Shown piece by piece: positions 14,794 to 29,917 of a stretch of DNA of 64,000 nt (positions within the stretch are counted from its first letter, which is position 1; each line of letters opens with the position of its first letter). This DNA is from Candidatus Eiseniibacteriota bacterium (GTDB lineage Bacteria > Eisenbacteria > RBG-16-71-46 > JACRLI01). The DNA is taken from assembly GCA_016235265.1 (NCBI GenBank), contig JACRLI010000014.1, positions 247,405 to 311,404 on the forward strand, written 5' to 3'. The position numbers were made by a program, and so were the translations under genes. The notes beneath the pieces are model-generated. The model searched no databases and was not told where the DNA came from. It saw nothing but the letters and a program-made list of their open reading frames with translations.

Positions 14794-16467
14794 CTACAGC
14801 GACTTCACCGCCGAGTACTCGCCCCACACCGAGCGCAGCGAGTCGCTGATCTCGCCGAGGGTGACGTCGGCCTTCACGCAATCCAGGATGCGTGGCAGCA
14901 GGTTCCCCGCACCCTTCGCTCCCGACTCCAACTCCCGGCGTGCGGCCGCGGCGGAGGCCTCGGAGCGGGCGGCGCGGAACTCGCGCAGCCGCTCCAACTG
15001 GCGGGCCGCGGAGGCCTCGTCGGGCGCGAACGGCTGCATCTTCTCCGGCTCCTCCACGGCGTACTTGTTCACGCCCACCACGGTGAGCCGGCCATCCTCG
15101 ATGGCCCGCTGCGCGGCGTAGGCGCTGCGGTGGATCTCGCGCTGCACCCAGCCCTGCTCGATGGCGCGCGGCATGCCACCCATCTTCCCGACCTCGTCCA
15201 GGATCTTCATGGCCGCGGCCTCCAGATCGTCGGTGAGCCGCTCCACAAAATACGAACCCGCCAGCGGATCCGCGGTGTCGGCCACGCCGCTCTCCTCGCC
15301 GATGATCTGCTGCGTGCGCAGCGCGGTGCGCACCGCGATCTGCGTGGGCAGGGACAGGGCCTCGTCCATGGAGTTGGTGTGCAGCGACTGCGTTCCGCCC
15401 AGGGCCGCGGCCAGTGCCTGCAGCGTCACGCGCACCACGTTGTTCTCCGGCTGCTGGGCGGTGAGCGTGGAGCCGGCGGTCTGGGTGTGGAAGCGCAGCA
15501 GCCAGGAGCGCGGGCCCTTCGCGTGGAACCTCTCGCGCATGAAGCGCGCCCACATGCGCCGCGCGGCGCGGAACTTGGCCACCTCCTCGAAGAACAGGTT
15601 GTGCGAGTTGAAGAAGAAGCTGAGCCGCGGCGCGAAGGCGTCCACGTCGAGCCCCGCGTCCACCGCGGCCTGCACGTAGGCCAGGCCGTTGCCCAGGGTG
15701 AACGCCAGCTCCTGCGCGGCGGTGGAGCCGGCTTCGCGGATGTGGTAGCCGGAGATGGAGATGGTGTTCCAGCTGGGCACCTTCTCGAAGCAGAAGGCGA
15801 TCAGGTCGGTGGTCAGCCGCATGCTGGGCGCGAGGGGGAAGATGTACGTCCCGCGCGCGGCGTACTCCTTCAGGATGTCGTTCTGCACCGTGCCGTTGAG
15901 CCGGTCGAAGGCCACCCCGCGCTTCTCCGCCAGCGCCAGGTAGAAGGCGAGCAGGATCGAGGCGGTGGCGTTGATGGTCATGGACACGCTCACCGTCTCC
16001 TGCGGGATGGCCTCCATGAGCCGCTCCATGTCCGCGCGCGTGGCCACCGCGACGCCGACCTTGCCCACCTCGCCGGCGGCGCGCGGGGAATCGGAGTCGT
16101 AGCCCATCTGGGTGGGCAGGTCGAAGGCCACCGAGAGGCCGGTCTGGCCCTGCTCCAGCAGGTAGCGGTAGCGGCGGTTGGACTCGTCGGCATCGCCGAA
16201 GCCGGCGTATTGCCGCATGGTCCACAGCCGCGCGCGGTACATGTCCGCGTGCACGCCGCGGGTGAAGGGGAAGGCGCCCGGATCGCCCAGGCGCTCCTGG
16301 AGCCCCGGCGCGACGTCCGCGGCGCGGTAGGTGCCCTGCACCTCGAGGCCGGAGGAGGTCTCGAAGCGTTCGTGGCGGAGGGCCCGGGGCTTCCCGGCGG
16401 ACTTGTCTCGGGCTGGGTTGCCTCCGGCGGGCATGTCCCCTCCGGGTCCGTGGCCCTTTCCGCTCAC
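14794..16467 (-). CDS. methylmalonyl-CoA mutase, catalytic (large-subunit N-terminal) domain protein; no B12-binding domain in this ORF
   Basis: [55 protein letters not shown] and [12 protein letters not shown] are all MCM alpha-subunit hallmarks. The 557 aa end before the cobalamin-binding domain. Confidence 0.88.
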
Positions 16468-16991
16468 GGGGCCGCCTCCGCGGGCACCGGCGGCGCGAGC
16501 GTGATCAGGCTGGCGCCGCCGTCCACGGACTGGCCCACCTGCACGTGGATCTTGTCCACCTTCCCCGGGGCCGGCGCGCCCAGCTCGTTCTGCATCTTCA
16601 TCGCTTCCATCACCACCAGCGCCTGGCCTTCCTGCACCTCGTCGCCGGCGGCCACCTTCACCGCCACGATGAGCCCCGGCATGGGGGCCTTGAGCGCCAC
16701 CGGGCCGGTCACGGCCTTCTTGCGCTCGGGCCTGCGGGTGCGCGCGCGCACCTCGTCGAGCACCGTCATCTCGTGGGTGGCGCCGCCGAACCGCACCCGG
16801 AACAGGTCGCCCTCGCGGTCCACCGCCACCTCGCGGCTGCGCCCCTCGGTGAGGATGGAGTACGCGCCGGCCGAAAGCTCGGCGCAGTCGATGTAGGATT
16901 CCACGCCGTCCAGCAGCACCTTCCAGCCGCTGCCCGCGGGGATGAACTCCACCCAGCGCTCCTTTTCCCCGATCCGCACGCTGTACTTCAT
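16464..16991 (-). CDS. biotin carboxyl carrier protein-like (biotinyl/lipoyl domain protein)
   Basis: C-terminal EAMKMQNEL biotinylation motif. Starts [14 protein letters not shown] overlap with the biotin carboxylase stop, and a 4-bp overlap with the downstream mutase gene. Confidence 0.8.
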
Positions 16992-18505
16992 ATCCGGCCT
17001 CCCGCCCCCGGCCGGCCGGCCCGCTTCCAGGCCCCGCCGACCCCGTCGCCCGTCGCGGCCACCGCCTCCACGCGCGCCCCGCCCGTGGAAGGGTGCAGCA
17101 TCGCGTGCAGCGCCGCCGCGCGGACCGCCAGCGCCTCCTCCTCCTCGGTGGGTTGCACCGCCTGCGGATGGTAGAACTGGGCCACCATGCCCACGTCGCA
17201 GCGGCCTTCCACGAACTCGGGGTGGTTCAGCGCCCAGCGGTGGAAGGGGATCGAGGTCTTCACGCCCTCGATCACGTACTCGTGCAGCGCGCGCAGCATC
17301 CGGCGGCGCGCCTCGTTGCGGTCGCGGCCCCACGCGATCAGCTTGCCCACCAGGGAGTCGTAGTACAGCGTGATCTCGGAGCCCGGGTACACCCCCGCGT
17401 CGTTGCGCAGGCCCGGGCCGCTGGGCAGCCGGAATCTCGAGATCTTCCCGATGGAGGGCATGAAGTTCTTCTCGGGGTCCTCCGCGGTGATGCGGCACTC
17501 GATGGCGTGGCCGCGCGGCTGGATGTCCGCCTGCGCGAACGGCAGCTTGCCCCCGCTGGCCACGAACAGCTGCAGCTTCACCAGGTCGAGCCCGGTGACC
17601 ATCTCGGTCACGGGGTGCTCCACCTGCAGCCGCGCGTTGACCTCCAGGAAGTAGAAGTTCTGGTCCTTGTCCACCATGAACTCGGCGGTGCCGGCGTTGG
17701 TGTAGCCGGCCTGCAGCGCCAGGCGCACGGCGCAATCGCCCATGGCCCGGCGCACCTCGTCGCGCAGGTTGGGGGCGGGGGTTTCCTCGATCAGTTTCTG
17801 GTGGCGGCGCTGCACGGAGCAGTCGCGCTCGCCCAGGTACACGGCGCTGCCGTGATGGTCGGCCAGGAACTGGATCTCCACGTGGCGCGGGCGCTCGAGG
17901 TACTTCTCGAGGTACACCTCGTCGCTGGAGAAGGCGGCCTTGGCTTCCCCGCGCGTCAGCTCCAGCGCGGAGGCCATCTCCTCCTCGGCGCGCACCACGC
18001 GCATTCCCTTGCCGCCCCCGCCCGCGGAGGCCTTGAGCAGCACCGGGTAGCCGATCTGCTTCGCCTCGTGGAGGGCCTCCTCCAAGTTGCGCAGCGGCTT
18101 TTCCAGCCCGGGCACCATGGGCACCCCGGCCTTGCTGGCCAGGCGGCGCGCGGCCAGCTTGTTGCCCAGCGCGTTCATCGCCTCCCAGGACGGGCCGATG
18201 AAGGCCATGCCGGCCTTCTGGACCGCCTTCGAAAAGTCGGCATTCTCCGCCAGAAAGCCATAGCCCGGGTGCACCGCTTCGGCGCCGCAGCGCTTCGCGA
18301 TCTCCAGCAGCTTGTCCACGTTGAGGTAGCTTTCGCGGGCTGGCGGGGGACCTAGCAGGTAGGCTTCGTCGGCATGCAGCACATGGAGCGAGCGGCGGTC
18401 GGCTTCCGAGTAGACGGCCACACTGCCCACCCCGAGTTCCTTGAGTGCGCGGCTCACGCGCACGGCGATCTCGCCACGGTTGGCGATGAGCACCTTCTTG
18501 AACAC
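16988..18505 (-). CDS. accC: biotin carboxylase (AccC-type ATP-grasp)
   Basis: (V)[52 protein letters not shown] start at 18505 with GGAGG upstream. It is unclear whether this is the acetyl-CoA or the propionyl-CoA carboxylase paralogue. Confidence 0.85.
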
Positions 18506-18573
18506 GGGCACCTCCCCTCCACAATCGGCCAAAACCACGCTTCAGCATAGACCCGGTGCGGGGAGGGAGCAAG

Positions 18574-18599
18574 CTTGGTTGCATGCTTTGGTTGCATGC
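18574..18599. repeat. 13-bp direct tandem repeat (C/T)TTGGTTGCATGC x2 in the intergenic region at the left edge of the defence island
   Basis: Seen directly at 18574-18586 and 18587-18599. It contains the GCATGC core that recurs at 28453-28472 and 29448-29455. Confidence 0.6.
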
Positions 18600-18604
18600 A
18601 GTTG

Positions 18605-21600
18605 TTAGACTGCCCCCTTCGATGGTCCATCGGTGAACTTCCCGGCCCCGGCGAAACGCGTCCGGATGTACTCATCGGCGCTGCCTGCCACGAGCTTCAC
18701 CGTGCCCGGCCCGCTCCTCACAAAGAAGTCGCCGTCCTTGCTCGATTCCATTCCACTCCACTTCAGGAATACCGGCTCGGGGCTCCGCTGGCAGGTGGCC
18801 ACGCACACGGTCTTGCCCTGCACCATCTGGGTCTTCGTATCGATGCAGGTCCCGGCCCGATCGCCGAGGCCGTTGCGGACTGCCAGCGCGAGGTGCCGCA
18901 TGAACTTGTCGTCGCTCTCGAGCCGGTCCTTCTCGATCCCAACGATGGATCCGTCATCGGCGACGCCGATCAAGAGGTCGCCACCTTCGGTGTTCAGGAA
19001 CGCGGCGATGGTCTTCAGCACGGCGTGGGTCACAGCCGTGTCGTCCTGCCGGTCTTCCTGGAGGTTCCAGCGGAGCGTGGATTTGAAGTCGAGCGTCTTC
19101 GACCCACCGCGCTTGATCAGCTCCTCGGCGTTACGGTGGGCGCGCAGGTACTGGTCGAAGAGGAAGTTCTTGACGGTCTCGCCGAAGGCGCGGTCGTCGG
19201 TGATGCGCTTGTAGAGATCGAAGTTCGAGTCGACGATCTCCTGGATCACGTGCTCGACCTTCTGATCGAAAGTCAGCCGCACGTTTTCGCGGGTGTTGGC
19301 GCGCGCGGCGGCGTCGAGCGCCGCGTCGTCGTCGAGCTTTGCCATCATCTGCCCGAGAGTGACGCGATGCTCGGGGCCGAGGTTCAGACCGAAGCGCTCG
19401 TTCAACTCGGCGATAATGCGGGAGAGCGTCTCCAGCTCCTCCGGCGTGGTGCCGTGGCCCTGCTTGGTGCTCACGGGTTCGAGCACGCCGGGCCTGCGCT
19501 CAAGCGCGATCTTGCCGCTGCCGGTCTGCTGGATCCGGTACGACTCCATGTCGATGTTCTGCTGCACCTCACGGGGCAGCTCAGCGCGATCGGCGGGCAG
19601 GAGGCGCCGCAGGTGCCGCGCGAAGACGTAGAGCTTCTCCAGGTCGGCGTCGGCAAAGGTCAGGACCTGGGCCAGAAACGCGTAGAGCCGCACGTAGTCG
19701 GTGAGCTGACCGCGGAGGTCATGTCGCTCCTCCTCGGAGAGCGCCCCAAAGCGCTCGACTACGGGCGCGAGCACCGAATAGAGCCGGTCCTGTGTCGCCT
19801 TGGGGTCGAAGTAGACCTTGGCGAAGGCCTTCACATCGGCCTCGGTGTAGACCGGGAAGGCACCGAGTCGCGTCTGAATCTCGTATAGGAGGTTCGGGTC
19901 GGTCGCCTCCGAGAGCAGCGTGGTCTCGTAGTAGGGCTCGAACGCGGTCTTGATCTCGTCCGACTCGTTGGCGAAGTCGAGGACCATCGTGCCCTTCTTC
20001 TCGGGAGGCAGCGTGCGGTTGAGGCGCGAGAGTGTCTGTACGGCGTTCACGCCACCGAGCTTCTTATCCACATACATCGTATGCAGCAGCGGTTGGTCGA
20101 ACCCGGTCTGGAACTTGTTGGCCACGATCAGGAACCGGTGCTCGGGTTGCTCGAATGTCTTCGCCGTCTGCGCCTCCGGAAAGCCATTCATGCCTGATTC
20201 AGTGTATGACCGCCCGCCGTCCTGCACGGTGCCCGAGAACGCTACCAGGGCCTTGAACGGGTACCCGCGCTCGGCCAGGTACTTGTCCGCCGCCAGTCTG
20301 TAACGCACTGCATGCAGTCGAGAGCGGGTGACGATCATCGCCTTCGCCCTGCCACCGATCTCGCCCTGCACCTGGGTGGCGAAGTGCTCGACGCAGATCC
20401 TGACTTTCTCGCCGATCGCGTGCGGGTGCAGCTCGACGAACGACTTGAGCAGGTACTCGGCCTTCTTCTTGTCGTAGCGCGGGTCGTCCTCGACCTTCTT
20501 CAGCAGCCGCCAGTACGCCTTGTAGGTCGAATAGTTCGCCAGCACGTCGAGGATGAATCCCTCCTCGATCGCCTGGCGCATGCTGTAGAGGTGGAAGGGC
20601 GCGAACTTTCCGTCGGGGCGCTTCGTGCCGAATAGTTCAAGCGTCTTCGGTTTCGGCGTGGCCGTGAAGGCGAAGGTCGAGAGGTTGGGAAGCCGCCCGC
20701 GCTTCTCCATCTCGGCCAGGATCGCGCTCTCCAGCTCCTCCTCGGGCGTCGCCGCCTCCGCCTCTTCCATCTCCGCCTCTTCGAGCGAGCCCGAGCTGAG
20801 CACGGCCTTGAGGCTCTTCGTGCTCTCGCCCGACTGCGAGGAGTGCGCCTCGTCGACGATCAGGGCGAAGCGCTTGCCCGGCAGCTCGCCAATCTCCTTC
20901 GCGATCACGGGGAACTTCTGGAGCGTGGTGACGATGATCGTCTTCCCCGACTCAAGCGCGTCCTTGAGCTGGCGCGAGGTCGTGTCGATGTTTTCGACCA
21001 CGCCGAGCGTCTGCTCGAACTGGCGCATCGTAGTCTGGAGCTGGCGGTCGAGCACGCGCCGGTCGGTGATGACCACGATCGAGTCGAAGACGCGTCGGTC
21101 GCCCGCGTCGTGCAGCGTCGCGAGCTGATGGGCGAGCCAGGCAATGGTGAAACTCTTGCCGCTGCCGGCCGAGTGCTGGATCAGGTAACGTCGCCCGGCA
21201 CCCAGAGCGCGTGCATCGGTCACGAGCTTGCGTACGCAGTCAAGCTGCTGGTAGCGCGGGAAGATCAGGAAGTGCCGGCCGGTCTTGCGCCCCTTCTCGT
21301 CCTCTTCCTCGACCTCGTGGATGAACTGGCGCACGAGGTCGAGCACGCTGTCGCGCGACCAGGTCTCCTCCCAGAGATAGGCGGTCGCATAGCCGCTCCG
21401 GGTGGGAGGCACGGGCGGGTTGCCAGCGCCGCCGAACTTGCCCTGGTTGAAGGGCAGGAAGCGCGTCCTCGGTCCGGCGAGCCGGGTCGTGACGTAGACC
21501 AGGTCGGGATCCACCGCGAAGTGCGCGAGACAGCGGCCGTAGGCGAGCAGCGGCTCGCGCGGATCGCGATCGGTCTTGTACTGGCGGATCGCGTCCTCGA

Positions 21601-22159
21601 CGTCCTGGCTGTTGAGGGGGTTCTTGAGCTCGGCGGTGAAGATCGGGATGCCGTTCAGGAACAGCACCAGATCGAGGCTGTTCTCGTTCTTCGTACTGTA
21701 GTGGACCTGGCGCACCACGGCGAAGAGGTTCGCAGCGTGCAGCCGCCGGGTCTCCTCGTTGAGCGCGCTCGCGGGACGGAAGTAGGCGAGGCGGAACTTG
21801 CAGCCCGAATCCTTGAGGCCGTTGCGCAGGACGTCGAGCGCCCCGCGGCGCTCGATCTCGGCGGCGAGGCGCTTCAAGAACTGCTCCCGGGCGGCCGCGC
21901 CGTGGTGCTGCTCGAGCTTCTTCCACTCCTTGGGTTGCGTGGCTAGGACGAAGTCCAGCACGTCGCGTGGCAGGAGGCAGAGCGTGCGGTCGTAGTGCTC
22001 CGGCTTGCGCTTGCGGTAGCCGCCCGGCGGTCTGTCACCAAATGGCGGCGGCGTCTCGCGCACGGCGGTAGTTTCCCCCGAGCATGCGTCCGGGCCGTGC
22101 TGGAGCAGGGCGCACTCAATCGCCTCCTCGAAGGAGCGTTCGGAGATCTCGGGGATCAT
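18605..22159 (-). CDS. hsdR: type I restriction endonuclease subunit R (HsdR) with a C-terminal AlbA_2/Schlafen-like domain fusion
   Basis: N-terminal HsdR nuclease domain; SF2 helicase motifs (AGSGKSFTIAWLAHQL; VDEAHSSQSG). The C-terminal 130 aa (TLDFKSTL...KTIAAFLNTEGGDLLIGVADDGSIVGIEKDRL) match the AlbA_2 (PF04326-like) signature. Confidence 0.88.
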   Translation of the reverse strand: MIPEISERSFEEAIECALLQHGPDACSGETTAVRETPPPFGDRPPGGYRKRKPEHYDRTLCLLPRDVLDFVLATQPKEWKKLEQHHGAAAREQFLKRLAAEIERRGALDVLRNGLKDSGCKFRLAYFRPASALNEETRRLHAANLFAVVRQVHYSTKNENSLDLVLFLNGIPIFTAELKNPLNSQDVEDAIRQYKTDRDPREPLLAYGRCLAHFAVDPDLVYVTTRLAGPRTRFLPFNQGKFGGAGNPPVPPTRSGYATAYLWEETWSRDSVLDLVRQFIHEVEEEDEKGRKTGRHFLIFPRYQQLDCVRKLVTDARALGAGRRYLIQHSAGSGKSFTIAWLAHQLATLHDAGDRRVFDSIVVITDRRVLDRQLQTTMRQFEQTLGVVENIDTTSRQLKDALESGKTIIVTTLQKFPVIAKEIGELPGKRFALIVDEAHSSQSGESTKSLKAVLSSGSLEEAEMEEAEAATPEEELESAILAEMEKRGRLPNLSTFAFTATPKPKTLELFGTKRPDGKFAPFHLYSMRQAIEEGFILDVLANYSTYKAYWRLLKKVEDDPRYDKKKAEYLLKSFVELHPHAIGEKVRICVEHFATQVQGEIGGRAKAMIVTRSRLHAVRYRLAADKYLAERGYPFKALVAFSGTVQDGGRSYTESGMNGFPEAQTAKTFEQPEHRFLIVANKFQTGFDQPLLHTMYVDKKLGGVNAVQTLSRLNRTLPPEKKGTMVLDFANESDEIKTAFEPYYETTLLSEATDPNLLYEIQTRLGAFPVYTEADVKAFAKVYFDPKATQDRLYSVLAPVVERFGALSEEERHDLRGQLTDYVRLYAFLAQVLTFADADLEKLYVFARHLRRLLPADRAELPREVQQNIDMESYRIQQTGSGKIALERRPGVLEPVSTKQGHGTTPEELETLSRIIAELNERFGLNLGPEHRVTLGQMMAKLDDDAALDAAARANTRENVRLTFDQKVEHVIQEIVDSNFDLYKRITDDRAFGETVKNFLFDQYLRAHRNAEELIKRGGSKTLDFKSTLRWNLQEDRQDDTAVTHAVLKTIAAFLNTEGGDLLIGVADDGSIVGIEKDRLESDDKFMRHLALAVRNGLGDRAGTCIDTKTQMVQGKTVCVATCQRSPEPVFLKWSGMESSKDGDFFVRSGPGTVKLVAGSADEYIRTRFAGAGKFTDGPSKGAV

Positions 22160-23517
22160 GCGACCTCCTTCCGCACGTCGATCCTGCCCGTCACGGCGGC
22201 TGAGATGAGCGCGGCGCGGAGTTCCTGGAGGCGGTCGATGGCATCGCGGACTTTTGCGACCAGGGCGTCGATTCGCGCCGTCTCCCGATCAAGGACAACT
22301 GCAATGGCGACTTGCTCCGAATGGGGCGGCACCATCATGTGCATTCGCGACAGGTGTGAGGGACCGAAGTGCTGAATCGCACTCCCGCAGCGAGCAAGCT
22401 CTGTCTGTGTGAGAAAAGCTCCAGAAAGAAGGAACCACCGAAGAAAAGTCCTCACCATCGTGCCGGCGCGTGGTCGCATGATGATGATGCCTGTGTAGGG
22501 AACGGCACCTTGAGTTTCCACGTCCACCTCAGAGCAGAAGCCAGTCGAGGCGCTTCCGCTAATCAGAAGATCGCCGATCCGAACGCAGAAGTGATCCCAC
22601 CTCCGATGGACCAAGTCGGGTGAAAGGTAGTTGCAGCCACTGAGACTTGCCCTTCGTCCGCCGATGCCAGCAATCCGAAGCAACGGAATACCATCGTTCG
22701 TGAAATCAGACGCCATGATCCCCGGGCCTTCCAGGAAACGTACTTCTCTCTTAAGCGGCTTCACCTCCCAATGCGCGGGAATCTCTCCCAGCCACTCGAC
22801 ACCGGAGTCCTTCGTCGGGACACACGGGTCGAGGCCATTGGTGACGGCGCGCGTGATGAGGGCGGTGCGCTGCTCCTGTAGCAGCGCGATTAGCCGCTCC
22901 TTCTTCGCTACCAGCGCATCGATCCGCGCCGTCTCCCGGTCGAGGAAGGCGGCGATGGCGCGTTGCTCGGGGATGGGGGGGCTCGCCAGCTCGTACGTCG
23001 CCATCTCGCTTTCGTTGATAGCGGGAAAGCTCACGCCCTTGGAGTTCGCCACGACGCGCTCGACGAAGTACGGAGCTCGCAGGGCATACGCGGCGTAGTC
23101 GGTCGTCAGATCGTCCACGGGCCGGACGACAGCGAAGCCTGTCGAGACAACCATGCCAGGTTCTGGATTGCGGATCGGGGCGATTGCGCGGAGGTACGTG
23201 CGCACGGTCGACACGACCACGTCGCCGTCGCGCACGAGTCTTCGGGCACGGGATGGAGCCGAGGAGAACGCGAGTTGTTCCTGTTCGACGATTCGCCCGA
23301 GGCTGTTAACGCCTCCGATGTCCACGTAGACCATCTCGCGCCCGGGATCGGTGTCCTCCATGAGCGACTCCGGGTTCAGCGTGGCCAGATGCTTCAGCCG
23401 CTTCACCTCCCAATGCGCCGGAATCTCCCCCAGCCACTCGACGCCGGAGTCCTTGTAGGCCGGGTACGGCTTGAAGCGCGGGCGCGCGGGCGGCAGCGGC
23501 TGCACGGATTCCTTCAT
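22156..23517 (-). CDS. hsdS: type I restriction-modification specificity subunit (HsdS), two target-recognition domains
   Basis: The repeat DSGVEWLGEIPAHWEVK(R/P)LK occurs twice, and the conserved coiled-coil spacer LDRETARIDALVAK also occurs twice. Start is ATG at 23517, in an ATGA overlap with the upstream gene; the ORF-track N-terminal extension is spurious. Confidence 0.9.
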   Translation of the reverse strand: MKESVQPLPPARPRFKPYPAYKDSGVEWLGEIPAHWEVKRLKHLATLNPESLMEDTDPGREMVYVDIGGVNSLGRIVEQEQLAFSSAPSRARRLVRDGDVVVSTVRTYLRAIAPIRNPEPGMVVSTGFAVVRPVDDLTTDYAAYALRAPYFVERVVANSKGVSFPAINESEMATYELASPPIPEQRAIAAFLDRETARIDALVAKKERLIALLQEQRTALITRAVTNGLDPCVPTKDSGVEWLGEIPAHWEVKPLKREVRFLEGPGIMASDFTNDGIPLLRIAGIGGRRASLSGCNYLSPDLVHRRWDHFCVRIGDLLISGSASTGFCSEVDVETQGAVPYTGIIIMRPRAGTMVRTFLRWFLLSGAFLTQTELARCGSAIQHFGPSHLSRMHMMVPPHSEQVAIAVVLDRETARIDALVAKVRDAIDRLQELRAALISAAVTGRIDVRKEVA

Positions 23518-24593
23518 GCCGTTACCCTCCGGCGCTGTCCGCTCTGGTAATCGGTCCAGACCTGATCCATGTCCAACTCTTTCATTGCTTCGCGCAGCCG
23601 TTCGATCGCCTTCTGCGAGTAGCGATCGAAGCATGCCTTGCCGATCGTGATGCGGCGATAGCAATCCGCATCGTCCTTGATCTTCAGATGGCGGATCAGC
23701 GCCGTGGTCTTGGGTCCCGACAGCCCAAGGTGCTCCGCCACCTGATCCCGGCCGAGGTTGTAGAAGCCGAGCGAGTCCACCTTGTGAACCGCCACGACGC
23801 TGGCTCCGGGCGTGCCTTCGGGCACGAGCTGGATCGGAATCCCTTCCTTCTTCGCGATCCGCAGGTCGAGGGACGGGCCGGCCCCTGTGGCGGTGAGCTC
23901 GATCGCGGCGACGCCGGGGAAGACATCACTCCACTGCGAGCCCTTGCTGATCGAATCGCCGAGCTTGCGCAGCTCGCCATCGGTCGGCTGGATGCGGTCG
24001 CCCCGCATGGCGCCGTCGACGATCGCGAGCGCCCGGAGTTTGGCGGCAGCCTCGACCTTCCGTCGCTTGCCGGGCGTGAGGAGCCGCTGCACCTCCCTGG
24101 CCTCCTGCTCGAAGAGGGTCGCGAGATCGGTCGGCGGCGTGGTCGAGAGCGGCAGGACGCGAGGCGGAAGATGGACCTTGAGATCCTGATCGAACACCGC
24201 TCGGACGACATCGCGAAACAACGTCAGCCCGGCCTGGGCGTGGATGTAGAGGTGCTGTTCCGAGAGGTCGACCAGGTGGTGCTGGGCGGCGTCGCGCAGC
24301 GTGTTGATCGCCTGTAGCTGAAGGACCTGCTCCTGGCTCAAGAACCGGACCGAGCCGTCGCTAAGCGCCTTTCGCAGGCACTCGTCGAATCCGATCGTCT
24401 GCTTCTCCCGCGGCTTCCGGATCGCTCCTCCCCGATGCAGGATCGAAGCCTTGAGCAGCATCTCGAACGCGTGATCCAGCAGGATCAAGACGGCATCGAC
24501 GCGGCCCCGGTCCCAGGGCCGGTTGTAATGCTCGATGCTGAGCACGAGCGAGTCGACCGCCTTCGCGAAGAGCAGCCTGGATTCGCGCTTCAT
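23514..24593 (-). CDS. uncharacterized protein embedded in the type I RM operon (N-terminal alpha-helical domain + C-terminal HTH-like region)
   Basis: Real start is MKRESRLLFAKAVDSLVLSIEHYNRPWDRGRVDAVLILLDHAFEMLLKASIL at 24593 (ATGA overlap with the abiEii stop). C-terminal LGFYNLGRDQVAEHLGLSGPKTTALIRHLK resembles a winged helix. No motif was confidently recognised; it may be a DUF family associated with RM operons. Confidence 0.6.
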   Translation of the reverse strand: MKRESRLLFAKAVDSLVLSIEHYNRPWDRGRVDAVLILLDHAFEMLLKASILHRGGAIRKPREKQTIGFDECLRKALSDGSVRFLSQEQVLQLQAINTLRDAAQHHLVDLSEQHLYIHAQAGLTLFRDVVRAVFDQDLKVHLPPRVLPLSTTPPTDLATLFEQEAREVQRLLTPGKRRKVEAAAKLRALAIVDGAMRGDRIQPTDGELRKLGDSISKGSQWSDVFPGVAAIELTATGAGPSLDLRIAKKEGIPIQLVPEGTPGASVVAVHKVDSLGFYNLGRDQVAEHLGLSGPKTTALIRHLKIKDDADCYRRITIGKACFDRYSQKAIERLREAMKELDMDQVWTDYQSGQRRRVTA

Positions 24594-25522
24594 CGCGAGC
24601 GTTCCTCGCTCGGATTCCACGGGCCGCTCGGCAGCCAGGTCTGCGCGAACGGCTCGGTCGCGACGATGCTGTCCCGAAGCGGACCGAGGAAGCTCGTGAT
24701 CCGCTCGCCGATGGCGCCGAACCGCACCGGAGGTGGAATCAGCACGGCGCCCGCTGCGAGGTAGTTGCGCCAGCGAGTCGTGAGTTCCGGCAGGTGATAG
24801 AAGGCGGTGGTGAGAGCCCGCGGCGCCTCCTCCGTCCACGGCGTGCGTCGCCGCTCGAAGCAGGCGGCGACGGCGTGCTGCAGCGCAGCCCCATCGAACT
24901 CGAAGGCACCGGCCAGGGCCCAGACGTCGTGGAAGTCCTTCATCCGGCTGTTCCGCGTGTCGAGCTTGACCATGGCCTCGAACTTCTCCGCCACCGTCTG
25001 CTCGCGCGGATAGGCGCGCAGGCGAGGCGCCGGCAGCGACGAAAGCATCGTCGGATAGGTGATCTCCTCCGGCGCGATGGCGATCGCGTCGCCCACGCCG
25101 AGGTCGAGCTGGACCGCGATGCGGGCCTGACCCAAGAACGCACGAAAGCGTGCGCGCTTGCCGGAGTACTCCTCCTCGGCCCGGATCGCCTCCACGACCA
25201 GTTCGGAGAGATCGAAGCGGAGCCCGTCCTCGGGACACGCCACCGCGCAGATCTCCGCGATCAACGACAGGATCGCGGGGTCGTCCATGGTGCATGAAGC
25301 CAGCACGTCGACATCGCGGGTCGCCCGGTAGGGATCCGGCATCCAGACCGCAAGCAGGCTGGCGCCCTTCAGGATGCAGCGATCTCGCGCCGCGCAGGCG
25401 CCGAGGCGGAAGAGCAGCCGCTCGCCGGCGAAGCGCGCGAGCGTGCGCTCGAACTCCTCACCGCGTGCCTTGGCTTGGTCGAGCAGGCGCGCCCGGACCG
25501 AGGCCGCGACATCGGGGCTCAT
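24590..25522 (-). CDS. abiEii: AbiEii/AbiGii-family nucleotidyltransferase toxin (type IV TA, DUF1814-like)
   Basis: MSPDVAASVRARLLDQAKARGEEFERTLARFAGERLLFRL followed by a GS..DVDV-type NTase core (ILKGASLLAVWMPDPYRATRDVDVL). Confidence 0.8.
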   Translation of the reverse strand: MSPDVAASVRARLLDQAKARGEEFERTLARFAGERLLFRLGACAARDRCILKGASLLAVWMPDPYRATRDVDVLASCTMDDPAILSLIAEICAVACPEDGLRFDLSELVVEAIRAEEEYSGKRARFRAFLGQARIAVQLDLGVGDAIAIAPEEITYPTMLSSLPAPRLRAYPREQTVAEKFEAMVKLDTRNSRMKDFHDVWALAGAFEFDGAALQHAVAACFERRRTPWTEEAPRALTTAFYHLPELTTRWRNYLAAGAVLIPPPVRFGAIGERITSFLGPLRDSIVATEPFAQTWLPSGPWNPSEERSR

Positions 25523-26226
25523 ATCAACCTCACGTCGAGGGCGGCGCTCAGGCGGCGCGACGGAAGGACCTCGACGACGCGCGTCAGCTCGGCGACGGTC
25601 ACCTTGCGCTGGCGCAGGCCGTCCTGGAGCGCCTCCATCGCCGCTTCCGGGCCGACGAGCCGCTCGAAGCGGAAGCAGTCGGCCACGGTGCGCGCGGGCG
25701 AGGTGATTCGGGCCGGCACTCCCTCGAACGCCGTCTCCTGCACGCCGAAGTTCCAGGCCGGGCCGCTGAAACGCACGGTGCGCAGCTTCAGCTCGCGCAG
25801 TAGGGGCTTGCGCGCCTTGTGCGGGATGGCAAGCCAGACTTCCGCCGGCGCCTGGGTCCCGATGCCGTGGATCCGCAGTGCCGAGAGCAGGCAGACGATG
25901 CTGTTCGGCACGCGCGCGCAGGCCATGGCGATGGAGTAGTCCTCGGTCGGCTCGGCGCCCGTCAGGCGGTAGAGCCCACGTCCGACCCGCTCGACAAGCT
26001 TCGAGCGCAGCAGGGCTGGGAGGTGGTCCCGCGTCAGGCCAGCGTGTTCGAGCTGGGCAGCACGGAAAAAGCCGACGACCCCCGAACTGCGGAGTCGTTC
26101 GACCGGGTCCCGAGCCGCTCCTTGACCCGTTTTGTCGGCACGTCGAGGTGACATGACGACAATATGCGTCATGGGCCCGGCTCTCGTCAACACAAGATGT
26201 CGGCGCCTCTCCGTGAGTGCCGACAT
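25519..26226 (-). CDS. abiEi: AbiEi-family antitoxin / transcriptional regulator (wHTH + AbiEi C-terminal domain)
   Basis: GVVGFFRAAQLEHAGLTRDHLPALLRSKLVERVGRGLYRL is a typical AbiEi N-terminal HTH. ATGA overlap with abiEii. The start could be a few codons into the ORF. Confidence 0.75.
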   Translation of the reverse strand: MSALTERRRHLVLTRAGPMTHIVVMSPRRADKTGQGAARDPVERLRSSGVVGFFRAAQLEHAGLTRDHLPALLRSKLVERVGRGLYRLTGAEPTEDYSIAMACARVPNSIVCLLSALRIHGIGTQAPAEVWLAIPHKARKPLLRELKLRTVRFSGPAWNFGVQETAFEGVPARITSPARTVADCFRFERLVGPEAAMEALQDGLRQRKVTVAELTRVVEVLPSRRLSAALDVRLI

Positions 26227-26232
26227 CTTGTG

Positions 26233-28359
26233 TCAGCCTCGAGGGGCGGCCGCGCCCGTCACCTCGGCCAGCATCCGCAGGATTTCCTGCTCGATCCCCC
26301 GGATCTCGCCCTCGATCTCCTCGATCGGGCGCGGCGGGGTGTAGCGGTAGAAGTAGCGATTGAAGTTGATCTCGTAGCCGACGAGGCCGCCCTGGCCGTC
26401 CCTCGCATCCCGCTTGCTCGTGTCGATCCAGGCGTCGGGGACGTGGGGCTTGACCTCCCGCTCGAGAAACGCCTCGACGCGCTCTGCGAGCGGCACGCTC
26501 TCCGTGTCGCGCAGCTCCGGGTCCGGCTCGGGGTTGCTGTCCTTGTCCCGGCAGATGGCGGCGGACTCGTCGCGCTCGGACAGCGCGGAGAGGATGGCCT
26601 TGCGCGCCGGCGCCGGGAGCTTCACGCCGGTTTTCTTCGCGGCGGCATCGAGCAGGCGCTCGAACTCGTCGCGGTCCTTGACGAGGGTGCCGGGCAGCCC
26701 GCGCACGAGCTTACGGATCGCCCCCTGCAACGCACGCCCGTCGACCTGCTCCTTCGCCCCCGCAGCGCCCTTCTTCTTCGACTGCGCCAGCGCCTGGAAG
26801 CCCTTCTCCTCCTCGAGGCGGGCGATGCGCTCAACGCTCGCCTGGAAGCTGAGCCGCAGGGGGCGCTCGACGGTGATCTTGCGGAAGCCGAAGTGGGTGG
26901 TTGGAAAGATGCGGCTGACGACGACGTCCTCTTCCTTGCCGTCCTTCGCCACTTTCCGCGTCTCGCCATCCTTGAAGGCGGACAGGACCTTCAGGATGTC
27001 CTGCGAGCGTTCGAGGGGGATCTCGCGCCGCTTGTCACCGAGGCTCTTGCGCATCGGGACCCAGAATGAGATGGCGTCGATCAGCTGAACCTTGCCCTTC
27101 CGCGCCGGCGCCTTGCGGTTCGTCACCACCCACACATACGTGGCGATGCCCGTGTTGTAGAAGAGCTGCTCGGGGAGTGCGATCAGCGCTTCCAGCAGGT
27201 CGTTCTCCAGGATGAAGCGGCGAATCTCGCTCTCGCCGCTGCCGGCATCGCCCGTGAACAGCGGCGAGCCGTTCATGATGATGGCGATCCGCGAGCCGCC
27301 GTCCTTCGGGTCCCTTGCGTGCGCCAACATGTGCAGCAGGAACAGGAGCTGGCCGTCGCTGATACGCGGGAGCCCCGGTCCGAAGCGGCCCGAGGCGCCG
27401 CGCTCGTGCTCGGCACGCACGGCGTCCTCGTCGCGCTTCCAGTCCTTGCCGTACGGCGGGTTGGCGATCAGGTAATCGAACGTCTGGCCGGAGTGGCGGT
27501 CGTTGGAGAGAGTGCTGCCGTATGCGATGTTGTCGGCGTCGCGTCCGGTCGGGTCCTTCATGAAGAGATCGGACTTCGAGACAGCCCAGGTTTCGGGATT
27601 CACCTCCTGGCCGAAGAGATGGATCTCCGCACCCGGGTTCATCGCGGGCCGGAGGATCTCGCCGTTCTTCCGCAGGCCGACGGTGATGTGCTCCTTGGTG
27701 ATCATCAGCATGCCGCCTGAGCCGCAGCACGGGTCGTACACGGTGCGGATCGCCTTCTTGGCCTGGATTTCCTTCTCATCACCGGCAAGCATCAGATCCA
27801 CCATCAGATGCACAACATCGCGCGGCGTGAAGTGCTCGCCCGGATTCTCGTTCAGCGCTTCGTTGAACTTCCGGATCAGCTCCTCGAAGATCGTGCCCAT
27901 CGTCGGGTTGTCAATTCTGTCCGGATGGAGATCGACGTTCTTGAAGCGCTCGAGCACCTGGAAGAGCAGCCCCGCCTCATCGAGCTTGCTGATCGTGTTG
28001 TCGAAATCGAACTTCTCCAACACCTCACGCATGTTCGGGCTGAAGCCGGCGATGTAGTTGCGAAGATTGGCGGCGAGGTGCGGCGCGTCGGCCAGCAGCT
28101 TCTCGAAGTCGTAGCGGGAGGTGTTGTAGAACGCGAAGCCCGCTATCTTCCGCAGCTGTGGATCGAGATTCTCGAGCTTCTTGCCCCGCAGCTCGGCTTG
28201 CTTGCCGAGGACCTTGCCCTTGGTAGGAGCGAGCACGCAGTCGAGGCGGCGCAGGACGGTCAGTGGCAGGATCACGTCCTGGTACTTGCCGCGCTTAAAG
28301 GTGTCGCGGATCAGGTCCGCAACGCCCCAGAGGAAGCTGACGATCTCGCTATGGTTCAC
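26233..28359 (-). CDS. hsdM: type I restriction-modification DNA methyltransferase subunit (HsdM), N6-adenine MTase
   Basis: HsdM N-terminal domain; SAM-binding VYDPCCGSGGML; catalytic LIANPPYG; 708 aa with a long C-terminal extension. Confidence 0.92.
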   Translation of the reverse strand: MNHSEIVSFLWGVADLIRDTFKRGKYQDVILPLTVLRRLDCVLAPTKGKVLGKQAELRGKKLENLDPQLRKIAGFAFYNTSRYDFEKLLADAPHLAANLRNYIAGFSPNMREVLEKFDFDNTISKLDEAGLLFQVLERFKNVDLHPDRIDNPTMGTIFEELIRKFNEALNENPGEHFTPRDVVHLMVDLMLAGDEKEIQAKKAIRTVYDPCCGSGGMLMITKEHITVGLRKNGEILRPAMNPGAEIHLFGQEVNPETWAVSKSDLFMKDPTGRDADNIAYGSTLSNDRHSGQTFDYLIANPPYGKDWKRDEDAVRAEHERGASGRFGPGLPRISDGQLLFLLHMLAHARDPKDGGSRIAIIMNGSPLFTGDAGSGESEIRRFILENDLLEALIALPEQLFYNTGIATYVWVVTNRKAPARKGKVQLIDAISFWVPMRKSLGDKRREIPLERSQDILKVLSAFKDGETRKVAKDGKEEDVVVSRIFPTTHFGFRKITVERPLRLSFQASVERIARLEEEKGFQALAQSKKKGAAGAKEQVDGRALQGAIRKLVRGLPGTLVKDRDEFERLLDAAAKKTGVKLPAPARKAILSALSERDESAAICRDKDSNPEPDPELRDTESVPLAERVEAFLEREVKPHVPDAWIDTSKRDARDGQGGLVGYEINFNRYFYRYTPPRPIEEIEGEIRGIEQEILRMLAEVTGAAAPRG

Positions 28360-28452: not shown

Positions 28453-28472
28453 GCATGCTATTGTTAGCATGC
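28453..28472. promoter_or_regulatory. 20-bp perfect palindrome GCATGCTA-TTGT-TAGCATGC upstream of hsdM (candidate operator)
   Basis: Perfect 8-4-8 inverted repeat about 95 nt upstream of the hsdM ATG (28359), in the 120-bp spacer between the TIR-like gene and hsdM. Confidence 0.55.
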
Positions 28473-28479
28473 TCTGTTC

Positions 28480-29322
28480 TCACAACGCCTTGTTCATATC
28501 CACAGATAGCCCAGCGGCCTTCAGCTCCTTGGCCAACTTCAACCGCCAGCCGCCCTCCATATCAAGCTTGACGTAGAGTACTCCCGAGTAGTCGGAAAGC
28601 ACCTCAATGCCCTCCACAAACAGGGCGCACACGCGGGACCGTCCAAGCCGGCCAAGGAAGAACCCGAGTTCAAGGATCACGTTCTGTCGCGCACGAAGGT
28701 GCAGCTCGTCATTCGATGCAGTCGCCAAGCCGCCGCGATCGTCGCCGGTGAGAAGCACGACTGCGAACCCTACGTCGCTGTAGTCTTCGAACTTCTCGAT
28801 AATAGTCCGGCCGCAATTGGGCTGCTCACGAAGCAAGATCACCTCTTGATCCAGCTTCTCAAGGAAGCGCGCCACGCTCTGGATTGCCGCCTCGTCGTGA
28901 CCGTGCACCAGGAAGATCCGGTGGCCCTTTGGGGCGTTCGCCAATACGCCGGAAACAGTGCCGGCCCCTTGGAGTTGCTGCTCCGTCCTGAGCAGCTCAA
29001 GCAAACCATCAAGACGGGCAAGCTGCGTTTGGAGGCTTTCCGCCCGGTGGCTCTCCCACCATCCTTCACCTGCCCCCATCGGGAAATCCCCGTACTTTCC
29101 CACATCCGTCACGCTGCTCACGTTTGGCGAGTTGCGACCGAACGCCTTCTCAAGGTAATTCCGGGTCACCAGCTCCCACTGCCCGTGGGAATCACTACTG
29201 AGGGGACGCGATTGCAGGAGTTCGCGTCCCTTCCCGAGTTGCTCCTCCAGGAGGCGGATTCCCGTGGCAGAGTCAACATCCGGGCGTCCGGGAGGGTCTG
29301 GCTCTTTGCGTTTACTTGCCAT
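28480..29322 (-). CDS. TIR-like nucleotide-binding domain protein (COG4271-type), N-terminal domain of unknown function
   Basis: C-terminal half IFLVHGHDEAAIQSVARFLEKLDQEVILLREQPNCGRTIIEKFEDYSDVGFAVVLLTGDD...RARQNVILELGFFLGRLGRSRVCALFVEGIEVLSDYSGVLYVKLD matches the 'predicted nucleotide-binding protein containing TIR-like domain' signature. SD GGAGAGAGA. Lower GC than the flanks. Confidence 0.8.
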   Translation of the reverse strand: MASKRKEPDPPGRPDVDSATGIRLLEEQLGKGRELLQSRPLSSDSHGQWELVTRNYLEKAFGRNSPNVSSVTDVGKYGDFPMGAGEGWWESHRAESLQTQLARLDGLLELLRTEQQLQGAGTVSGVLANAPKGHRIFLVHGHDEAAIQSVARFLEKLDQEVILLREQPNCGRTIIEKFEDYSDVGFAVVLLTGDDRGGLATASNDELHLRARQNVILELGFFLGRLGRSRVCALFVEGIEVLSDYSGVLYVKLDMEGGWRLKLAKELKAAGLSVDMNKAL

Positions 29323-29770
29323 CCGGTCTCTCTCTCCGTCGCTCCGCGCCTCTTAACGAGAATTCGACCGCCATGGATCAGCAGTTCGGCAGCCCCGTCC
29401 AATCTAGTCGCTCCCGCTACCCTCCGGTGCAAGCCCTCTGGAAAACTGACCTTGCATGCACGCTCCCCGACTCCCCCCGCGGTAGGCAGCACGAAACGTC
29501 CAGGCCCGGTCAGTATAAAGCCGGTCCACCGGACTCACCACCCCAAGCCGCTGGGATTCAGCACGGGGGCATCAGCAGCCAGGCTGCGAGCTGGGGGCCT
29601 CGCGGACACAGGCGCAGCTCGATCCACCCGTACAACGTATGCCCCAGGTGATGATCCAGCGCAGCGCGCACTTGGAACGCTTTCGGGCGTTGCTGTCGCG
29701 ACACCGGGGCCTGTCCCGGATCTTCCGGAAGCCGCACTCTCCCTGCCGCAACCTCCGTGTCGGCGCCACA

Positions 29771-29799
29771 TTGACACCCCCGCGCAAAGCCGATAGCTT
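29771..29799 (+). promoter_or_regulatory. candidate sigma70 promoter upstream of yajC
   Basis: TTGACA (29771-29776), 17 nt, TAGCTT (29794-29799); about 118 nt upstream of the yajC ATG. Confidence 0.4.
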
Positions 29800-29917
29800 C
29801 CGATCCGTGTGTCCCGCGCGCTCCACGGGTGGTGCCCGGGGGGTTCCAGGGAGCCAGGCGCGCGCCGATTGCCCGCCCCTATCCGACCCGCAACTTCAAT
29901 GGTTTCAAGGAGGTTTC

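Follow-up and report, generated by a model that had tools for sequence, protein, structure and literature searches.

A gene at positions 28480–29322 on the minus strand of the 64,000-nucleotide window analyzed here (a stretch of contig JACRLI010000014.1 from a Candidatus Eiseniibacteriota bacterium; positions are those of the window) probably encodes an autonomous abortive-infection protein of the PDC-S35 family, a single polypeptide whose TIR domain would act as an NAD+ hydrolase (NADase) gated by clustering. The protein consists of a four-helix bundle, a flexible linker and, at its C-terminus, a TIR domain of the Cap12/Pycsar class. The open reading frame (ORF) begins with ATG, has exactly these limits, and contains all the motifs quoted in an earlier sequence-only reading of this DNA: HGHD (res. 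140–143), EKFE (res. 176–179), LLTGDD (res. 190–195), RARQNVILELGFFLGRLGRSRVCALF (res. 210–235), and LARLDGLLELLRTEQQLQ (res. 101–118). Its product is identical to P0001, for which the annotation of a Candidatus Eisenbacteria metagenome-assembled genome (MAG) reads 'nucleotide-binding protein'. Because of this identity, a PF10137 match with E 1.9e-33, and thousands of full-length homologs, we regard the gene as real, far beyond chance for an ORF in a 70% GC genome. Homologs share the start methionine of the window protein in an alignment of 27 sequences (A1). The gene and its features, some of them placed on an AlphaFold2 (AF2) model scored by the predicted local distance difference test (pLDDT), are as follows.

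28480–29322, minus strand: complete PDC-S35 gene, 280 codons plus stop, encoding bundle, linker, and TIR domain (ORF listing, PADLOC, identical protein)
29327–29337, minus strand: purine-rich Shine-Dalgarno-like element GGAGAGAGAGA, with 4 nt between its end and the ATG (read from the sequence)
29272–29322, minus strand: res. 1–17, basic proline-rich tail, predicted to be disordered (pLDDT 46–63, no secondary structure)
28963–29271, minus strand: res. 18–120, four-helix bundle, proposed sensor or clustering module (AF2 model)
28921–28962, minus strand: res. 121–134, flexible linker of variable sequence (pLDDT below 50 for res. 120–132)
28483–28920, minus strand: res. 135–280, Cap12/Pycsar-class TIR domain (PF10137), predicted NADase effector (Pfam, profile, Foldseek)
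28669–28689, minus strand: res. 212–218, R-Q-N-V-I-L-E, active-site motif (alignment with SfSTING)
28591–28593, minus strand: D244, equivalent of SfSTING D110 ('PSD' aligned with 'PTD')
28453–28472, no strand assigned: perfect 8-bp hairpin GCATGCTA-ACAA-TAGCATGC (written on the gene strand) with a 4-nt loop, 8 nt past the stop codon, within the 120 bp that separate the gene from hsdM

Profile searches place the protein in PDC-S35, a family of single-gene phage defence candidates. All five PDC-S35 models match it, and the PADLOC model PDLC05005 aligns residues 39–279 with profile positions 22–262 of 264 (E 7.3e-74), so that the profile spans both the TIR domain and most of the bundle. The N-terminus, described as uncharacterised in the sequence-only reading, merits that term in one respect, as Pfam and NCBIfam hold no model covering the N-terminal ~120 residues, but not in another, as it falls mostly inside the PDC-S35 profile. 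Full-length homologs of ~278–280 residues and 60–91% identity come from Nitrospira, Polyangia, Planctomycetes, and other unrelated lineages, with a span that includes Nitrospirota, Planctomycetota, Myxococcota, Chloroflexota, and Proteobacteria; a halobacterial archaeal MAG encodes a relative of the TIR half. This distribution looks patchy and horizontally transferred.

The C-terminal half is TIR-like, as first proposed from a COG4271-type consensus. Far from lacking a hidden Markov model match to a TIR family, it is matched by PF10137 (CAP12/Pycsar effector TIR) at 115.4 bits against a cut-off of 24.7, with residues 135–254 covering profile positions 1–118 of 119. In a sequence search of the Protein Data Bank (PDB), the A1 profile matched only three solved proteins, namely Cap12 TIR-STING (9lmq, E 9.6e-11), SfSTING (7un8), and PycTIR (8jsj, E 1.9e-4). 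A Foldseek search of the PDB with the AF2 model returned TIR-STING entries 9lmq/9lmr in the top six positions (E 7.5e-5 to 2e-3, probability 1.0) and also matched SfSTING 7un8.

Alignment with SfSTING, at a constant numbering offset, pairs R212-Q-N214-V-I-L-E218 with R78-D-N80-V-V-F-E84, and S-D244 with T-D110. In SfSTING, R78 and N80 touch the phosphates and ribose of NAD+, and E84 is the catalytic glutamate; D110 enters from the neighboring TIR domain, and the site is complete only after filament formation (PMC9402430). In the window protein, F137, H140, and G141 of the first strand, together with R212, N214, E218, and D244, are invariant in A1. Among 85 relatives from many phyla, the equivalents of R212, N214, and E218 are present in all 85, which settles the check on the catalytic glutamate suggested earlier; the D244 equivalent is found in 84, and the equivalents of NAD+-pocket residues, including F137, are conserved in 84–85. 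With its NAD+-pocket residues conserved, the C-terminal half appears to be a competent NADase that is gated by oligomerisation and belongs to the effector class of TIR domains. The earlier idea that it might sense nucleotides is disfavored by this complete catalytic set and by the attached domains, among which we found no STING, SAVED, or cyclic-nucleotide-binding sensor.

The N-terminal domain, predicted alone by AF2, forms a four-helix bundle (pLDDT 88, predicted TM-score 0.78), which corrects its previous description as coiled-coil-like. The helices comprise residues 18–37, 43–61, 66–72, and 86–120, with pLDDT values of 88–96 across the bundle, followed by the disordered linker and the α/β domain. 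The linker (res. ~121–134) is the least conserved stretch of A1. Only two core residues of the bundle, W49 and F61, are conserved family-wide, and the long, aromatic-rich α3–α4 loop (res. 73–85) is conserved inside the clade of the window protein and different between clades. A homologous bundle was detectable in 37 of the 85 relatives; over their 666 pairs, identity averages 23% for the bundle and 60% for the TIR domain, the bundle value being the lower in 99.8% of pairs.

An exhaustive HMMER search with residues 1–132 identified 215 representative clusters that carry the bundle, most of them PF10137 proteins of ~275–285 residues. Elsewhere, the bundle is fused to TIR_2, including a bSEFIR-type domain (P0194, P0236), to DUF4062 (P0220), to DUF2321, in a Zn-ribbon protein (P0167), and to a transmembrane-containing C-terminus in a 719-residue protein (P0183). 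These alternative fusions come from the exhaustive search; a word-index search with the N-domain gave only truncated fragments of the same family. For DUF4062, a role as NAD+-depleting core has recently been reported in Evangelion, a defence family of single genes. The bundle thus behaves as a portable module, and the effectors it is joined to are of several types, for the most part TIR-like or NADase domains. A fast-diverging, recombining module on a conserved effector bears the signature expected of a sensor or specificity domain, and we propose the bundle as the sensor because of its fast, clade-specific divergence and its recombination with other effectors.

Within the bundle, the helix 2–turn–helix 3 segment (res. 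53–72, nt ~29107–29166), 'YLEKAFGRNSPNVSSV', resembles a TPR_12-type hairpin. P0193, a repetitive TPR-like protein of 840 residues, matched this segment 12 times; we rejected it as a related architecture, the likeness being one of motif in a repetitive TPR_12-like protein. The resemblance is consistent with a protein–protein interaction surface.

No universal partner gene accompanies the family. We clustered 953 ORFs located within 5 kb of the gene in 84 non-redundant loci from genomes and metagenomes and found no universal partner; the largest clusters are integrases (12 loci), a methylase/helicase pair (6 loci), MNT nucleotidyltransferases (5 loci), and HicB (4 loci). A Pfam census of the 78 same-strand neighbors within 150 bp is topped by Mod methylases (6) and MNT proteins (4), and a PADLOC census of 131 neighbors within two genes gives the same picture. 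Resolvases, transposases, Cas9, Csm6-like proteins, GmrSD, and PDC-S06 are also found near relatives. The clade of the window protein has no conserved small partner ORF, and the tightly coupled neighbors at L001, L002, L006, L081, and L086 are mutually unrelated, with no Pfam or PADLOC match. We conclude that the gene is an autonomous, independently acquired module in a defence island. The PDC-S35 match and the lack of a conserved partner across the 84 loci both support the earlier suggestion of a one-gene defence module. Neither is the gene conserved beside yajC, which is present in 2 of the 84 loci (L033 and L053, a Dehalococcoidia MAG and a Thermotogae MAG), ~5 kb upstream of short, ~180-residue PF10137 variants that lack the N-domain; this proximity is probably a coincidence.

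Some close homologs of the window protein have other defence genes nearby. One lies near a PDC-S06 AAA_13 ATPase (L001, 1793–4387), one from Nitrospira near a type II restriction-modification (RM) system, HicA, and a Csm6-like gene (L083, 10944–15746), and one near Cas9/Cas1 inside an integrase-bounded element (L086, 413–4000).

We propose the following sequence of events. In the uninfected cell, the TIR domains would be catalytically incompetent, as each active site would need D244 from a neighbor, by analogy with SfSTING D110. Upon infection, the bundle would bind a multimeric phage-derived cue, or be otherwise released, and the protein would cluster, much as SpbK does. Clustering would then promote an ordered TIR assembly that completes the site formed by F137, R212, N214, and E218 with D244; the residues are those observed in the alignment, and the assembly is inferred. 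By analogy with Cap12, PycTIR, and SpbK, the resulting NAD+ hydrolysis would stop growth and block phage replication.

The closest architectural analogue is SpbK from the Bacillus subtilis element ICEBs1, which consists of a four-helix bundle (res. 1–94), an 18-residue linker, and a TIR domain (res. 113–266); its bundle docks onto the portal dodecamer of SPbeta, at the clip domains, and clustering leads to STING-TIR-like filaments and NADase activation (PMC12847820). The modeled window protein shares this three-part layout in the same ~270-residue size class, with a bundle (res. 18–120), a disordered linker of ~14 residues, and a TIR domain (res. 135–280). Both are single-gene systems carried on mobile elements, and the SpbK filaments resemble the STING-TIR assemblies that are the closest solved relatives of the window TIR domain. 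The SpbK TIR domain, however, falls in the TIR_2 superfamily, whereas the window protein matches PF10137 only. We rejected membership in the SpbK family, as a PDB sequence search showed no similarity at E<=10: the window protein may work like SpbK but is an analogue of it.

Closest by profile and fold is the Cap12/SfSTING TIR domain, whose active-site residues R78/N80/E84/D110 correspond to R212/N214/E218/D244. Unlike Cap12, in which the TIR domain is N-terminal, the window protein carries it at the C-terminus and has no STING domain. We rejected its identification as a Cap12 effector of CBASS: the alignment is confined to the TIR part, there is no STING Pfam match, the scores for the Cap12 equivalogs of NCBIfam (39 and 30 bits) fall far below the cut-off of 450, and no CD-NTase or cyclase gene lies near the gene, whose flanks hold hsdM/AbiE/hsdS/hsdR and yajC/def. 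The Pycsar effector PycTIR shares a C-terminal PF10137-type TIR domain behind a regulatory N-domain, with the glutamate of DNVHLEFG aligned, and the PADLOC PycTIR model matches at E 3e-6. The window N-domain is, however, a four-helix bundle rather than a cyclic-nucleotide-binding domain, and with no match to the latter and no pyrimidine cyclase nearby, PycTIR identity was also rejected. The bSEFIR and Evangelion systems, single-gene and NAD-depleting, follow a like logic, in which one polypeptide joins a TIR-like NADase core that is conserved to an auxiliary region that has diversified, and the window's N-domain type is itself fused to bSEFIR-type (P0194) and DUF4062 (P0220) domains. Their effector families differ from the PF10137 domain found here, and in Evangelion, the DUF4062 core is N-terminal and the auxiliary region C-terminal.

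Several points weigh against an autonomous, clustering-gated NADase. TIR-fold enzymes can use substrates other than NAD+ or make signalling products rather than merely deplete NAD+. In the AF2 model, confidence for the TIR part is only moderate (pLDDT 50–85). A Foldseek comparison of the bundle with the PDB gave generic four-helix bundles only (best E 0.13), and neither the protein nor the N-domain profile matched SpbK at E<=10, in a PDB copy whose content of an SpbK chain is unconfirmed; the sensor role is thus proposed by analogy and from the evolutionary pattern. PDC systems are described as unvalidated candidates, and the searchable literature, in which the name PDC-S35 is absent, holds no experimental phage defence or NAD+ cleavage for any member. 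Finally, a minority of family members are tightly embedded in RM operons, and some functional coupling could exist.

This last point bears on the relation of the gene to RM. A gap of 120 bp separates the window gene from hsdM, which follows it on the same strand, and yajC/def are divergent on the other side. The anticodon nuclease PrrC, embedded in the EcoprrI type Ic RM locus, sets a precedent for an RM guard, in which the TIR protein would stay latent on the methyltransferase or restriction complex and fire when a phage anti-restriction protein disables RM. PrrC and PDC-S35 have in common an abortive-infection effector gene in or beside an RM operon. RM genes immediately next to PDC-S35 and co-oriented with it occur in 8 of the 84 loci and in the window (9/85), and they represent three types: type I in the window and L043, type II in L083, and type III-like in six operons, to which the PrrC likeness is closest.

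L007, 7395–14247: type III-like operon
L020, 8091–13495: type III-like operon
L021, 8421–12294: type III-like operon
L027, 8193–14210: type III-like operon
L059, 7119–13969: type III-like operon
L071, 6612–15979: type III-like operon

Their hosts are Halieaceae, Binatia, Azophilus, Nitrospirales, and two Alphaproteobacteria, and their layout is mod, PDC-S35, in some cases a small MNT-type gene, and then a large ResIII helicase. In all six, the stop codon of mod and the start codon of PDC-S35 overlap (as ATGA, TGATG, or TAATG), an arrangement that implies translational coupling of the two genes. Mod matches the PADLOC MTase_III model at E ~1e-147 in three full-length ORFs and at ~1e-70 to 1e-78 in two shortened ORF calls; the 'res' proteins have a weak Pfam ResIII match, and no PADLOC REase_III model matched them. 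All six copies fall in one subclade of 12 members, for which an RM guard is attractive.

For the window gene, such a role is poorly supported, and we consider it unlikely. RM genes are found within 10 kb in only 15 of the 84 loci, leaving ~80% without; in the window's own clade of ten, two copies are RM-adjacent, the window's and the Nitrospira copy beside a type II system, and the 91%- and 86%-identical homologs (L081 and L001) have no RM neighbor. From the RM side, HsdM of the window is highly mobile (88–93% identity across phyla), and PDC-S35 is absent from all three distinct contexts of 91–92% identical HsdM, which have aspS, a gene of no assignment with AIPR, or higBA upstream instead; conserved linkage to hsdM, the co-occurrence proposed for checking, was therefore rejected. 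These related hsdM cassettes carry many unrelated cargo genes. The 120-bp gap with its hairpin separates the gene from hsdM, and its composition, atypical for the host, is unlike that of hsdM: the TIR gene has an overall GC of 0.60 and a GC at third codon positions (GC3) of 0.71, whereas GC3 reaches 0.90 in hsdM and 0.90–0.96 in def and yajC. PrrC, moreover, is a tRNA nuclease rather than a predicted NADase, and RM linkage is unconserved both in PDC-S35 and in the window's clade. Because the hsdM relatives lack the gene in three of three contexts and its GC3 differs, the best reading of the adjacency to type I RM/AbiE is a separate acquisition into a defence island and not functional dependence, which leaves little room for the earlier proposal of a signalling add-on to the RM/AbiE operon. 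Doubtful, too, is a wider scheme that joins a portable infection-sensing bundle, repeatedly recombined with different NAD-type effectors, to a PrrC counterpart, in which the Mod-coupled protein, and possibly that of the window, would be an RM guard held inactive by the methyltransferase complex and would deplete NAD+ when anti-restriction proteins disable RM.

Three further explanations set RM aside. In a Thoeris-like system, the TIR domain would make a messenger of the cyclic ADP-ribose (cADPR) type for an effector encoded elsewhere; many bacterial TIR proteins (ThsB) produce signals, a recent survey counts PF10137 among TIR Pfams, and SpbK yields N1-cADPR besides ADP-ribose (PMC12847820). 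We find this quite improbable, since no adjacent effector (SIR2-SLOG, Macro, or transmembrane) is conserved or recurs in the 84 loci, a Pfam search gave no match to the ThsB-type family PF08937, and the characterized PF10137 TIRs, Cap12 and PycTIR, are terminal NADase effectors (NCBIfam naming; PMC9402430); assignment to Thoeris (ThsB with a ThsA-type effector) was accordingly not made. An equally improbable reading is a selfish, NAD-degrading addiction toxin that stabilizes islands and plasmids and is not primarily anti-phage. It draws on the integrases, transposases, and toxin-antitoxin pairs often adjacent to relatives, and on plasmid-borne relatives whose neighbors include vapBC and a small upstream ORF, overlapping the gene, which might encode an antitoxin. 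An addiction role is possible for these relatives and is not suggested for the window gene, whose clade has no conserved small adjacent ORF; an invariant catalytic site with no antitoxin must be self-regulated, and pathogen sensing typically shows the pattern of a fast-diverging sensor attached to an effector that is conserved. Very unlikely, finally, is a non-immune nucleotide-metabolising or -binding protein, as the legacy name of COG4271 implies, acting as a nucleotide hydrolase or a receptor for a nucleotide signal. Source annotations do read 'nucleotide-binding protein', one relative (L087) lies amid housekeeping genes, and the TIR fold is common to nucleoside-processing enzymes such as MilB (PMC9402430), but the patchy, horizontal-looking spread with 60–90% identity across unrelated phyla, the atypical composition, the neighborhoods rich in defence and mobile genes, and the conserved NADase pocket with its trans-acting aspartate all count against it. 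The autonomous, clustering-gated NADase is the reading that we retain.

The plasmid-borne relatives are numerous: more than 1,100 plasmid records from Klebsiella, Escherichia coli, and Salmonella carry a 299-residue PDC-S35 relative with a TIR half 52–54% identical to that of the window protein. Examples are L088 (5271–6450, K. pneumoniae pK239_rmpA2) and L089 (5277–6456, E. coli pHB42-3), and WP_000963206.1 is a protein of this enterobacterial plasmid type. A 96-residue upstream ORF overlaps the gene by 11 bp, vapBC lies nearby, and a convergent gene encodes a KAP-family NTPase; the arrangement is possibly a two-gene variant. Both the plasmid-borne and the RM-embedded relatives match the same PDC-S35 models.

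The genes around PDC-S35 in the window agree with the RM/AbiE operon and the yajC neighborhood of the sequence-only reading: downstream, its strand continues with hsdM, AbiEi, AbiEii, DUF3644, hsdS, and hsdR, and yajC/def are upstream and divergent. The downstream genes, assigned with Pfam and PADLOC, are:

18605–28359, minus strand: type I RM cassette, mobile, context only
26233–28359, minus strand: hsdM
25519–26226, minus strand: AbiEi
24590–25522, minus strand: AbiEii
23514–~24569, minus strand: DUF3644/PDC-S19
22156–23664, minus strand: hsdS
18605–22159, minus strand: hsdR::AlbA_2

The cargo slot between hsdM and hsdS is filled here by AbiEi/AbiEii and DUF3644 and, in the 91–92% identical HsdM relatives (L090, L091/L092, L093–L095), by AbiE with GmrSD, DarT with Macro (DarTG-like), or AbiE with DarT and Macro. 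HsdR carries a C-terminal Schlafen/AlbA_2 domain in the window and in the cassettes of all these relatives. This RM lineage looks like a general carrier of abortive-infection and toxin-antitoxin cargo. The DUF3644 gene is a full-length match to the PADLOC single-gene candidate PDC-S19 (E 7e-157); the ORF listed for it (23514–25295) is over-extended into AbiEii, and the real start lies near 24569. At the island border, a 706-residue ORF on the minus strand (16464–18584) has a GC3 of 0.58 versus ~0.9 for its neighbors and a biotin-lipoyl/HlyD-type match limited to the last ~100 residues; it is probably over-extended or in the wrong frame over most of its length.

On the yajC side, a ~600-bp spacer (29323–29917) separates the PDC-S35 start from the probable yajC start at ~29918, the ORF listed for yajC from 29639 being over-extended. 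The spacer contains no Rfam family and no credible ORF, and may be where promoters sit or where the island ends. A promoter scan found no sigma-70 sites, and an Rfam scan of both flanks of the PDC-S35 gene gave a chance-level match only. On the hsdM side, the hairpin at 28453–28472 is unconvincing as an intrinsic terminator because no T-run follows it on the strand of the gene; it may terminate transcription, stabilise the RNA, or be a palindrome that binds protein.

Taken together, the window contains a multi-layered defence island beside the core genes yajC/def, built from PDC-S35, type I RM, AbiE, PDC-S19, and an HsdR-Schlafen/AlbA_2 fusion. Three features of PDC-S35 go beyond routine annotation, namely a Cap12/Pycsar-class TIR domain set in an architecture of the SpbK type, a bundle that is portable across effector types, and the translationally coupled subclade embedded in type III-like operons, which offers a concrete case for layered coupling of RM and abortive infection. 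The plasmid-borne relative is a convenient native E. coli model, and with validation, a family so far predicted by computation would become a defined system. If the proposed mechanism is correct, PDC-S35 would rank among the simplest TIR immune devices, with sensor, tether, and NADase in ~280 residues, and such a device would be very widespread, across phyla and enterobacterial plasmids. It would also extend the 'cluster-to-activate' paradigm of SpbK from TIR_2 to the Cap12/Pycsar TIR class and provide a compact scaffold for how a small helical bundle recognizes phage cues.

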